A stretch of 63,460 nucleotides of DNA, the filler included, from Stramenopiles sp. TOSAG23-2 (lineage: Eukaryota): assembly GCA_900128395.1 (NCBI GenBank). It is 22 parts of 22 records of this genome, joined end to end, with 100 filler letters (N's around TTAATTAATTAA, not from the genome) between each part and the next. Parts side by side here need not be neighbours in the genome. Positions count along the whole stretch, not along the records: positions 27,710 to 30,679 come from LT651436.1; 21 more parts are not named here. One strand, written 5' to 3'. Shown piece by piece: positions 27,710 to 29,755 of this stretch. A program made the position numbers and the translations under genes. Positions within the stretch are counted from its first letter, which is position 1. Every line of letters begins with the position of its first letter. The notes under the pieces are model-generated. The model searched no databases. It worked only from the letters and a program-made list of their open reading frames with translations, and was not told the origin of the DNA.

Positions 27710-29755
27710 TGGCGTACCGCGTGGAAATTCTTTTTTATAATCATTTAATAATTTTTTCACAACATTTTTATCAATTTTTGGTAATAATGGTACTTTCTTT
27801 TTCTTTTTTTTGTTATTGTTATTATTATTATTATGACTGCTGCTACTACTACTACTACTACTACTACTACCATTCGAACCACTTTTTTTATCAACGGTTA
27901 AAGCAAATGAACTTCCTTCATACCAATCTTTAATTTGCATCAATTTGATCAATTCATTTTCTAAATCTTTTGTTTTAAAATTGCGATCAAAAATTCTGTT
28001 AAATTCATTATAAGGCTTTGCTTTTTGTGTACCTGAAAGCATGCTTGGTTTTATAACTTGACCACCAACTTTTTCAAGAAATTTATACAATAAATTAGAT
28101 GGTTTGTTTCTACCATGAAACTTAAAAGAATACAAACCAACAATAGCTCTGGCAGGAATAGTTCCTTTTATTAATATTTCTTGTGCATTTTCTGCAAAAT
28201 TAGATGCCATGTTATTCACCGTTTTTCCATCATCTTCCATTGCCAATTCAAATAATGAATGTGAAGAGATATCTATTACACTAGCAGAATCTCCAAGTTT
28301 AGATAAATCAATTTTAACGAAGCGTTCTTGATAATTGTTTGGTTGCTCATTTTTATACGGTCCCTCAATCATACGTTTCATTCCATACCATAAAACCCAT
28401 CGAAGATTTTTTGTAATTGAAATAAATGGAGAACCTTGAAAATTTAATTTTGAACCATCATTCACATGGTTTAAAATGGAACATGTAGTATTATTTGGCT
28501 TTTTTGCTATAAGACCTTTTGTAGGATCTTCATAATAACGTAATAGACGATAACATATTTGGTCGTCTTTGTTTGGATTTTGTTGACAATATTCTATTGG
28601 GGCCAAACCTTGTTTATTTTCAAACATATTAGTGACTTCCTTAAGACATTCTGTTATTTTTGGTCTGTTATTAGGAGTTGGACTCCAACAATGTTGTAAA
28701 CACGTATTATTATTCTTTAATATAGAATTGTTTGATATTCGTGGTGATTTATTTTCAGTCTGCAACTTTATAATTTGGAATGTTACTACATTGTTATTGG
28801 CATTATTTGGCACTTGAGACCATGGATGCTCTTTCATCCATATGAAATTCAAAACACCACCATATGCATACACATCAGTTTCAAAGTTTTCTTTCGCACC
28901 TGGGGTGCACATCTCTGGGGCTTGATATCTAATATTCACATGACCATTGCGAGATGTGGTTGTGCCGCCAGTAGTTCCTTCAGTCGAACGCGCTAAGCCA
29001 AAATCAACAATTTTGATTGTCTGTTTCCCATCATTTTTTACCATAATATTATTTGGGCAAAAATCGCCATGGACAATACGAGATATACAATGAAGATATT
29101 CTAAGCCTTTTGATATTTGTAATGCCATGCGTAGTTTGACTTTTTCTGATAACGTTTTTTCATGCTTTAATTGCATAAATTTTTGTAGGGTATGCCCAGA
29201 AATATATTCCATGACTAAAAATGGTTTATCAACACTAGAGGAAAGACCATGAAAACGACACAAGTTAATATGGCTTACATTTTGCATAGCTTTTGCTTCC
29301 TTGCGTAAATTTTTCCAAATTGTTTGTAAATCATTACGATTATTATTATAATTCTTCAATGATTTTATTGCAACAGTTAACCCTCCAGGAAAAGAACCAT
29401 CTTTACTCTTCCATACATCCCCAAATGCACCACCACCAAGTCTTTTTTTATCATTGTTGTTATCACGTTCATATTCAATTTTTGACGGATCGATAGTATG
29501 AATCTTAGTTCTTCTTCTTTGCGTTGTTGAAGATGTGAGAGGAGGAGGCATCATACTTGCTGATAATTGCTGTGTCATTGAACTAGCATGTTGCAATAAA
29601 TTATTGCCACTAGCTAAGTTATTGTTTTCAAAATGATTAATTAGACTGTTAGTGGTTGATGATATATGTTGCGACTTTTGTTTTTTGGCACTATTCCCAC
29701 GATTGTTTTGTCCTTTATTTCTTCGTTTTTTATTATTATTACTACTACTCTTCAT
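27710..29755 (-). CDS. TKL-like protein kinase fused to an ADP-ribosyltransferase-like (R-S-E) domain, 3'-truncated
   Basis: Kinase motifs GGGAFG, VAIK, HGDFCPNN, DFG and YQAPE. C-terminal CYRLLR...GLIAKKP...HVNDGS...FISITK...AQEILIKGTIP. Confidence 0.75.

Follow-up and report, generated by a model that had tools for sequence, protein, structure and literature searches.

The stretch of DNA analysed here (the window), 63,460 nucleotides from Stramenopiles sp. TOSAG23-2 (GenBank assembly GCA_900128395.1), carries on its minus strand at 27710..29755 a gene that fuses a protein kinase domain to a domain resembling toxin-type ADP-ribosyltransferases (ARTs). That the two domains belong to one genuine gene, and that the second has a true ART fold, we regard as very nearly certain. 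Our preferred overall explanation, held with moderate confidence, is that the ART is a domesticated toxin tip serving as an intracellular effector. The original prediction, made from the sequence alone, had proposed a kinase at about 29450-28630 followed by an ART-like domain at about 28560-28130. The domains found by Pfam, motifs and the ART comparison, a kinase of tyrosine kinase or tyrosine kinase-like (TKL) type at 28637..29449 (residues 103-373) and an ART domain at 28115..28567 (residues 397-547), lie within about 15 bases of those limits.

The ART domain falls in Pfam family PF24494 (DUF7587), which matched residues 423-541 of the whole protein with an E value of 2.2e-9 and a score of 38.1 bits, the curated cut-off being 27, and scored 39.4 bits with the ART domain alone. 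The family was collected by exhaustive phmmer searches with the 238-residue C-terminal part at a cut-off of E<=1e-3, yielding 79 representatives, 78 of which were recovered by a core hidden Markov model (HMM). One phmmer match, P0008 (4220 aa), was excluded as a repeat protein in which neither Pfam nor the core HMM found an ART core. A profile built from 51 of the family sequences (A1) gave a single strong match in the PDB, chain 9zdm_B, 'Probable Rhs-family protein' (E 8e-20); ScARP (E 0.068) and Scabin (E 0.47) were matched faintly, both below significance. The 9ZDM structure is the RhsF-CT/RhsFi complex of Chromobacterium violaceum, reported to have an ART fold (bioRxiv 10.64898/2025.12.06.692724). 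Its toxin domain has been named TreThr and is described as ADP-ribosylating charged tRNA-Thr(GGU) at the anticodon in a reaction that depends on nicotinamide adenine dinucleotide (NAD) (NAR 2026, PMC13617354). The nearest neighbours by protein language model were DUF7587 itself (0.96) and an unnamed bacterial cluster (0.95), followed by the ArtA/Scabin/pertussis-S1, NarE and Lart1 ARTs (0.93-0.94).

In the alignment of A1 with 9ZDM, R1403 of RhsF corresponds to the Arg of the family's YR motif, S1445 to the Ser of F-I-S, Y1456 to an aromatic residue eleven positions after that Ser (Ser+11), and E1497 to the Glu of (Q)E. The equivalents in the window protein, all encoded on the minus strand, are R403 (codon 28547-28549) within CYRLL (28541-28555), S446 (codon 28418-28420) within FISIT (28412-28426), Y457 (codon 28385-28387) and E526 (codon 28178-28180) within AQEILI (28169-28186). 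RhsF toxicity is reported to be lost in the R1403A, Y1456A and E1497A mutants and partially affected in S1445A (bioRxiv 10.64898/2025.12.06.692724). Conservation was counted over 78 complete domain copies from 76 proteins, leaving out the fragments P0004, P0006, P0007, P0020 and P0026, the non-member P0008 and the duplicate P0084; P0031 and P0058 each carry two tandem DUF7587 domains. The Arg and the Ser are each kept in 77 of the 78 copies and the Glu in 76, the latter being invariant in alignment A1. The Y457 position holds W, Y or F in 69 copies, His430 is kept in 76, and the residue at Ser+2 is T or S in 67 (S446-I-T448 in the window protein). The YR, FISxT and QE motifs that the original prediction had ordered as an Arg-Ser-Glu (R-S-E) triad thus fall on the Arg, Ser and Glu that the family conserves, a match far beyond chance expectation.

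Structural modelling supported the same assignment. An AlphaFold2 model built on A1 had a mean predicted local distance difference test score of 76, rising above 90 in the core (about residues 30-175 of P0002). Six strands were modelled (29-33, 73-77, 105-112, 121-124, 155-159 and 167-174 in P0002 numbering), with R32, S75 and E155 on strands 1, 2 and 5 and Y86 in the helix after strand 2. A Foldseek search of the PDB returned 17 matches at E<=1e-3, and among the matches listed were EcPltA (E 5e-5, target template-modelling score 0.61) and pertussis S1; CARDS and cholera A1 came next, just above E 1e-3. In VIA alignments, pertussis S1 and EcPltA both reached Z 11.5, the former over 146 aligned residues at a root-mean-square deviation of 3.4 and the latter over 140 at 3.1. 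They were followed by the Rhs toxins TreX and TreTu (9.5-9.9, TreX at 9.9), Scabin (9.0), Tpt1 (8.9), ScARP (8.5) and pierisin (8.1). The top Foldseek and VIA matches were ARTs throughout, and the model shows the split beta-sheet of the ART fold with its six core strands. By model and alignment, the second domain is an R-S-E-class ART fold with intact active-site residues, and the pertussis/cholera-type fold expected by the original prediction was borne out. A search of a viral structure library gave no match at E<=1e-3, which neither supports nor opposes viral relatives.

The fusion itself could be an artefact, either a chimeric assembly or contaminating bacterial sequence attached to a protist kinase, and the highly fragmented assembly, with contigs of about 3 kb joined by spacers, would lend itself to such a join; we give this scarcely any credence. 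A seawater-metagenome DNA contig of 1611 bases, from a separate study, matches 28320-29916 with about 95% identity and crosses the kinase-ART boundary (about 28570-28640) with more than 200 bases on either side, differing by substitutions and by indels whose lengths total whole codons. Base composition is even along the gene. Furthermore, the kinase-ART architecture recurs in P0083, P0092, P0101, P0010, P0028, P0048, P0061 and P0069. P0083 (EukProt, 866 aa) combines a kinase, DUF7587 and ankyrin repeats and is 57% identical to the window protein over 419 residues; P0101, the N-terminal part of the same gene type, is 56% identical over 415 residues; and P0092 (JGI, 738 aa), with a kinase, DUF7587 and RNI-type leucine-rich repeats (LRRs), is 50% identical over 539 residues. 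The chimeric join that the original prediction had named as its own possible undoing is contradicted by the junction-spanning contig and by the shared architecture of these relatives. The single locus returned by a metagenome locus scan, L001, was a chance pattern match within a bacterial transporter region and was discarded.

The ART is quite likely to be catalytically active. It is very unlikely that the domain is a dead remnant kept for binding or as a scaffold, or that the gene is a decaying copy. Such decay would fit the apparently frameshifted or garbled relatives P0004, P0005 and P0006 and a gene that is incomplete in the assembly; against it, the 682-codon frame is open, and the Arg, Ser, aromatic and Glu residues are all intact here and in 10 of the 11 eukaryotic-clade members, the exception being the garbled P0005. 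The metagenome variant likewise shows only substitutions and whole-codon-sum indels, and identity of 50-57% runs along the whole chassis across three lineages. An active domain might instead be an NAD(P)+ glycohydrolase that depletes NAD+ on activation, as some ART-fold toxins of Rhs or type VI secretion system (T6SS) origin do, a reading we consider improbable. Transferase and hydrolase are inseparable by sequence alone, and Tse6 is described in the discussion of the TreThr paper as an NAD+-hydrolysing ART-fold T6SS toxin, with Tne5 entering by a title in its reference list (PMC13617354). The characterised member of the family is, however, a tRNA transferase, and no result points specifically to the NADase clades.

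The region ahead of the ART matched the Pfam family PK_Tyr_Ser-Thr (PF07714) on residues 103-373 with an E value of 2.6e-42, covering profile positions 4-257 of 258, and also Pkinase (PF00069; E 5.2e-41), in agreement with the TKL-like kinase originally proposed there. Its best PDB matches were EGFR, JAK, CTR1, ABL and BRAF. The domain retains, on the minus strand, the G-loop (GGGAFG, 29420-29437), the Lys of VAIK (29363-29374), the alpha-C Glu, the HxD Asp and the Asn of the catalytic loop (HGDFCPNN, 29048-29071), DFG (28997-29005), APE (28913-28921) and the CW…RP motif.

Bacterial members of the family carry the domain at the C-terminus, behind RHS repeats, YD shells or pre-toxin HINT domains, and are classical polymorphic toxin tips; together with the profile match to 9zdm_B, these RHS- and HINT-linked members substantiate the kinship to such tips to which the original prediction had pointed. 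A search for longer proteins (1216-3470 aa) returned two bacterial RHS proteins of 1384-1454 aa, one of them named from Saccharicrinis, and no long eukaryotic forms, which is weak evidence of absence. R-S-E ART tips and their spread to eukaryotes had already been listed by Zhang et al. 2012 (PMC3482391), and the kinase fusion is not mentioned among the passages of that paper available to us.

Eukaryotic members are of two kinds, small stand-alone proteins, several of them named from Mytilus, and multidomain forms. Besides the repeat-bearing relatives described above, the latter include P0010 (kinase, DUF7587, dual-specificity phosphatase and Med26/TFIIS-N), P0048 (kinase and DUF7587), P0061 (kinase and DUF7587, with coiled coils), P0069 (MORC ATPase, S5, zf-CW, kinase and DUF7587), P0027 (PWWP and DUF7587) and the MMETSP transcript P0028 (Morc-S5, zf-CW, kinase and ART, the ART being found by the core HMM and not by Pfam at 1e-3). 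In a quick maximum-likelihood tree of 78 domain copies and 137 columns, unrooted and with support from the Shimodaira-Hasegawa-like approximate likelihood-ratio test (SH-aLRT) only, nine kinase-fused and two chromatin-domain rows formed one group (SH-aLRT 91) beside the bacterial tips, and the window protein grouped with P0003, P0083 and P0005 (SH-aLRT 99). This topology fits, and does not prove, a history in which a toxin tip was captured once and domains were shuffled afterwards.

In the same tree, the small stand-alone members, P0035 among them, were placed separately from the kinase-fused clade. P0035, P0088, P0089 and P0090, the last three left out of the tree, are stand-alone DUF7587 proteins with acidic tails from Mytilus genomes, annotated as uncharacterised and in one case as 'SR140'. 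In the close relatives P0004, P0005 and P0006, at 85-91% and 47% identity, the sequence stops short or shifts frame within the ART domain: past KRMIE, P0004 resembles a +1 frame, and P0005 lacks the Arg and the His. These three could be pseudogene copies, products of gene callers that read through introns, or sequencing errors.

Under the preferred explanation, the ART domain would have been taken from a bacterial polymorphic toxin and retained in the cell as an NAD+-dependent mono-ADP-ribosylating effector. A C-terminal repeat module, ankyrin or LRR depending on the orthologue, would bind a ligand or target, and the role of the kinase, which may be an ATP-binding pseudokinase, would be to relay or license the activity. 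The ART would then modify nucleic acid, as TreThr modifies tRNA and weaker relatives guanine, or else protein, and the outcome would be a shutdown of translation or a marking of chromatin in a setting of conflict or stress. The protein presumably stays intracellular, because no signal-like stretch was seen.

Because TreThr ADP-ribosylates tRNA, a nucleic-acid target appears at least as likely as a protein one. Sequence kinship and the chromatin partners of the sister forms favour nucleic acid, which we would put at a little under an even chance; protein is favoured by the best structural neighbours, which are protein-modifying, and is a plausible target that we hold more doubtfully. A related possibility, which we think rather unlikely, is that the ART is a protein-directed mono-ART of ordinary signalling, in which kinase and ART mark the same endogenous proteins recruited by the repeats and no conflict or immune role is involved. 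The toxins that match it best in structure do modify proteins (Z 11.5 for pertussis S1 and EcPltA, 9.5-9.9 for TreX and TreTu), and kinase, ankyrin and LRR modules are common in signalling. However, the only clear sequence relative with a known target acts on tRNA, the next, weak sequence matches, ScARP and Scabin, are guanine-specific, and the MORC, zf-CW, PWWP and Med26/TFIIS-N partners within the clade point toward chromatin or nucleic acid.

Returning to the domesticated effector, a role in conflict or defence is hinted at by the interchangeable ankyrin and LRR tails together with the toxin ancestry. A logic of sensor, kinase and effector with such a role is a tentative proposal. The repeat tails and the MORC, zf-CW and PWWP partners are circumstantial backing for the putative gating by a kinase or pseudokinase and the putative immune or cell-death role that the original prediction had put forward. 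A more specific version, which we offer as speculative and unlikely, is that marine protists domesticated a TreThr-family Rhs tip as a cell-autonomous defence. Ankyrin or LRR repeats would sense an invader, for example a giant virus, and the ART would receive its licence from a non-RD kinase or pseudokinase. ADP-ribosylation of tRNA or other nucleic acid would then stop translation, while the MORC-zfCW-kinase-ART and PWWP-ART sister forms would direct this reaction to chromatin or invading DNA. If true, the domesticated-tip defence protein would give eukaryotes a counterpart to the abortive infection of bacteria.

Several observations weigh against the effector explanation, the state of the kinase among them. 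The catalytic loop is atypical as originally noted, its usual Lys being replaced by Cys, and the Arg of HRD is additionally replaced by Gly; no basic residue stands at the loop position and no Arg nearby, so that neither the HRD Arg nor the catalytic-loop Lys of Ser/Thr kinases or Arg of Tyr kinases was found. The loop reads HGDICPNN in P0083 and P0101 and HGDLNPYN in P0092; HRD or HND…K is kept in more distant fused relatives. HMMER aligns HGDFCPNN with the loop of the JAK JH2 pseudokinase, HGNVCTKN (chain 7t6f_A), which has the same Gly for Arg and Cys for Lys. Because the HRD Arg and loop Lys are absent and the loop aligns in this way, the kinase may be inactive, and 'gating' is unsupported. 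The likeness may have arisen by chance or by convergence on a regulatory module of kinase-like form, and the choice between a weak or unusual kinase and an ATP-binding pseudokinase appears about even.

The ART side has its own difficulties. Searched alone against the sequences of PDB chains, the window domain found no ART and gave only thioredoxin noise at E>0.5, so that its tie to 9ZDM depends on the family profile. The E/Q-x-E motif of the ADP-ribosylating toxin turn-turn loop is absent, the window protein having A-Q-E; E/Q-x-E is typical of arginine-specific ARTs and is not required for the superfamily. The residue at Glu-2 is Ala in all 11 eukaryotic-clade rows and S, A, F or Y elsewhere, with D-Q-E in TreThr. 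The 'bacterial tip' labels rest partly on a reading of N-terminal sequences beyond Pfam alone, the tree bears the limits given with it, and, given the frameshifted or garbled appearance of P0004, P0005 and P0006, some family copies may be decaying. Two RNA libraries yielded contigs over 27956-28439 and 28199-28491, a hint and not proof of expression; of the read data, X2 covers only the low-complexity end of the gene, and the parts of the gene left uncovered in RNA runs carry no meaning. The source contig, shorter than 3 kb, provides no genomic context and lacks the C-terminus of the gene. No eukaryotic member has, to our knowledge, a known activity, target, partner or immunity factor.

The window as a whole (1-63460) is a pseudo-scaffold of about 21 contigs of about 3 kb, separated by N44-TTAATTAATTAA-N44 spacers, with two further internal N120 gaps. 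The contig of the gene spans 27710-30679 and holds one internal gap of 120 N. The open reading frame (ORF) starts from an ATG at 29755 and runs uninterrupted and intron-free for 682 codons (27710..29755, minus strand), with no stop codon because the contig edge at 27710 cuts the gene. Residues 1-102 (29450..29755) form a basic, low-complexity region with KKRRNK at 29714-29731, in which we found no Pfam match and no hydrophobic signal-like stretch; this basic head could conceivably act as a nuclear-targeting signal. A helical extension past the ART core (residues 548-620, 27896..28114) is kept in the closest relatives, with low to middling model confidence. It is followed at 27710..27895 by a poly-Ser/Asn/Lys linker and the last 14 residues (LLNDYKKEFPRGTP), which align just ahead of the P0083 ankyrin repeats. 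Because the final residues of the ORF (…DYKKEFPRGTP) align with P0083 immediately N-terminal to its first ankyrin repeat, a repeat module, most likely of ankyrin repeats, probably makes up the C-terminus lost beyond the contig edge.

Within the helical extension, PYNEFNRIF is a short motif common to the eukaryotic clade, of the form hydrophobic, any residue, E/D, W/F, located 45-70 residues after the ART core. It is present in the window protein, P0083, P0010, P0048, P0028, P0061, P0069, P0027 and P0014, with TFREWLDLF, GFEEWLRAM and SFSDWLKKV among other examples. One may speculate that it forms an autoinhibitory or docking helix.

Since the window is a chain of unrelated contigs, adjoining genes are not genomic neighbours and are uninformative about the kinase-ART gene. 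The remaining contigs carry long intron-free ORFs for ordinary eukaryotic proteins in DNA of about 30% G+C, their products including a kinesin, an Na/H exchanger, a protein disulfide isomerase-like protein, a polycystin, an anoctamin, a methionyl-tRNA synthetase and a BAH-bromodomain protein; the host therefore appears to be an AT-rich, intron-poor eukaryote. Matches to all or part of the stretch lie mainly in marine and seawater metagenome runs. An Rfam scan of the window reported no family at threshold. Searching the window by tblastn with P0083, P0001 and P0092 revealed neither a second kinase-ART copy nor a continuation of the gene, and gave weak LRR matches on other contigs, from unrelated LRR genes.

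On the adjoining contig at 24642-27482, three minus-strand ORFs (24642-26522, which encodes the BAH-bromodomain protein, 26512-26910 and 26898-27482) share stretches of about 50-100 residues (MHNMK.PRAMLKAQGEETSV…, …KKNMVHEKAPKKKKKKKKIPNDNNNY…TELN), which suggests a tandem duplication or a single gene split by short introns or frameshifts. The next contig, 30780-31896, carries on the minus strand two RNI-type LRR ORFs with NNNITDVQSIGEGLKTNNTL repeats and neither kinase nor ART. One of these begins MGCNQS, a possible myristoylation-type start, and both weakly match the LRR tail of P0092.

Neither the ART fold nor the DUF7587 family nor the TreThr enzyme is new. In the literature searched, we found no paper naming DUF7587, none tying it to TreThr, and no description of the eukaryotic kinase-ART(-ankyrin/LRR) chassis or of the MORC, zf-CW and PWWP sister forms. 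In the portions of both RhsF papers available to us, neither DUF nor Pfam is mentioned, and none of the passages on eukaryotes or homologues deals with homologues of the toxin domain in eukaryotes. The original prediction had not recognised the fusion as a described family. This holds for the fusion, of which we found no published account, and fails for the domain, already Pfam DUF7587 with a bacterial member, RhsF-CT/TreThr, that has been solved and characterised.

A theme now emerging in bacterial warfare and phage defence is the ADP-ribosylation of RNA and DNA, and the tRNA modification by TreThr was shown only in 2025-2026. Here, a TreThr-type domain that is a mere DUF in Pfam appears embedded in eukaryotic multidomain proteins with kinases, ankyrin or LRR repeats and chromatin modules. 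This makes a clear case for a bacterial toxin tip reused within eukaryotic cells and assigns a likely biochemical function to DUF7587 proteins of protists and molluscs. The kinase-ART proteins offer a concrete, testable candidate for regulated eukaryotic nucleic-acid ADP-ribosylation.

Among known systems, the pertussis-like and cholera toxins are the closest in structure: pertussis S1, EcPltA, typhoid PltA and cholera/LT A1 gave the best structural matches (Z 11.5 to 8, 114-147 aligned residues) with the same R-S-E-class layout. Identity to these toxins is only 10-20% with no sequence-level match, and the window protein, lacking a B-subunit partner, a secretion signal and E/Q-x-E, is not a member of their families. 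The guanine- or DNA-directed ARTs ScARP, Scabin and pierisin share the ART fold (Z 8.1-9.0), and ScARP and Scabin show a faint likeness around GL-x-AK ... H-V ... S-x-(Y/F)-(I/V)-S-T; all three carry Q-x-E, which is absent from the window protein, as are pierisin-type lectin domains. With immunity proteins of the nucleotide-binding leucine-rich repeat (NLR) and signal transduction ATPase with numerous domains (STAND) types, the likeness is architectural only, a fixed enzymatic chassis with swappable C-terminal ankyrin or LRR repeats, and the analysis found no NACHT, NB-ARC or other STAND NTPase. Non-RD kinases are associated with innate immunity, and the kinase described here likewise lacks the HRD arginine.

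The nearest known system is RhsF-CT/TreThr, which shares with the window domain its sequence family, its ART fold and the positions of the Arg, Ser, aromatic (Ser+11) and (Q)E residues. The window protein scores above the cut-off for PF24494, as do most of its relatives, and Pfam lists the function of this family as unknown; the present analysis links it to the ART superfamily and to TreThr. TreThr is the C-terminal tip of a T6SS Rhs toxin, its active site plugged by a cognate immunity protein. The window domain, in contrast, lies inside a eukaryotic protein, preceded by a kinase and probably followed by a repeat module, with no secretion signal or known immunity partner; Pfam found no RHS, YD or HINT match in the protein, and a kinase stands upstream instead. 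A tRNA-Thr anticodon-loop substrate is known only for the C. violaceum enzyme. The window protein is thus best described as a relative of polymorphic toxin tips that is not itself a polymorphic toxin.

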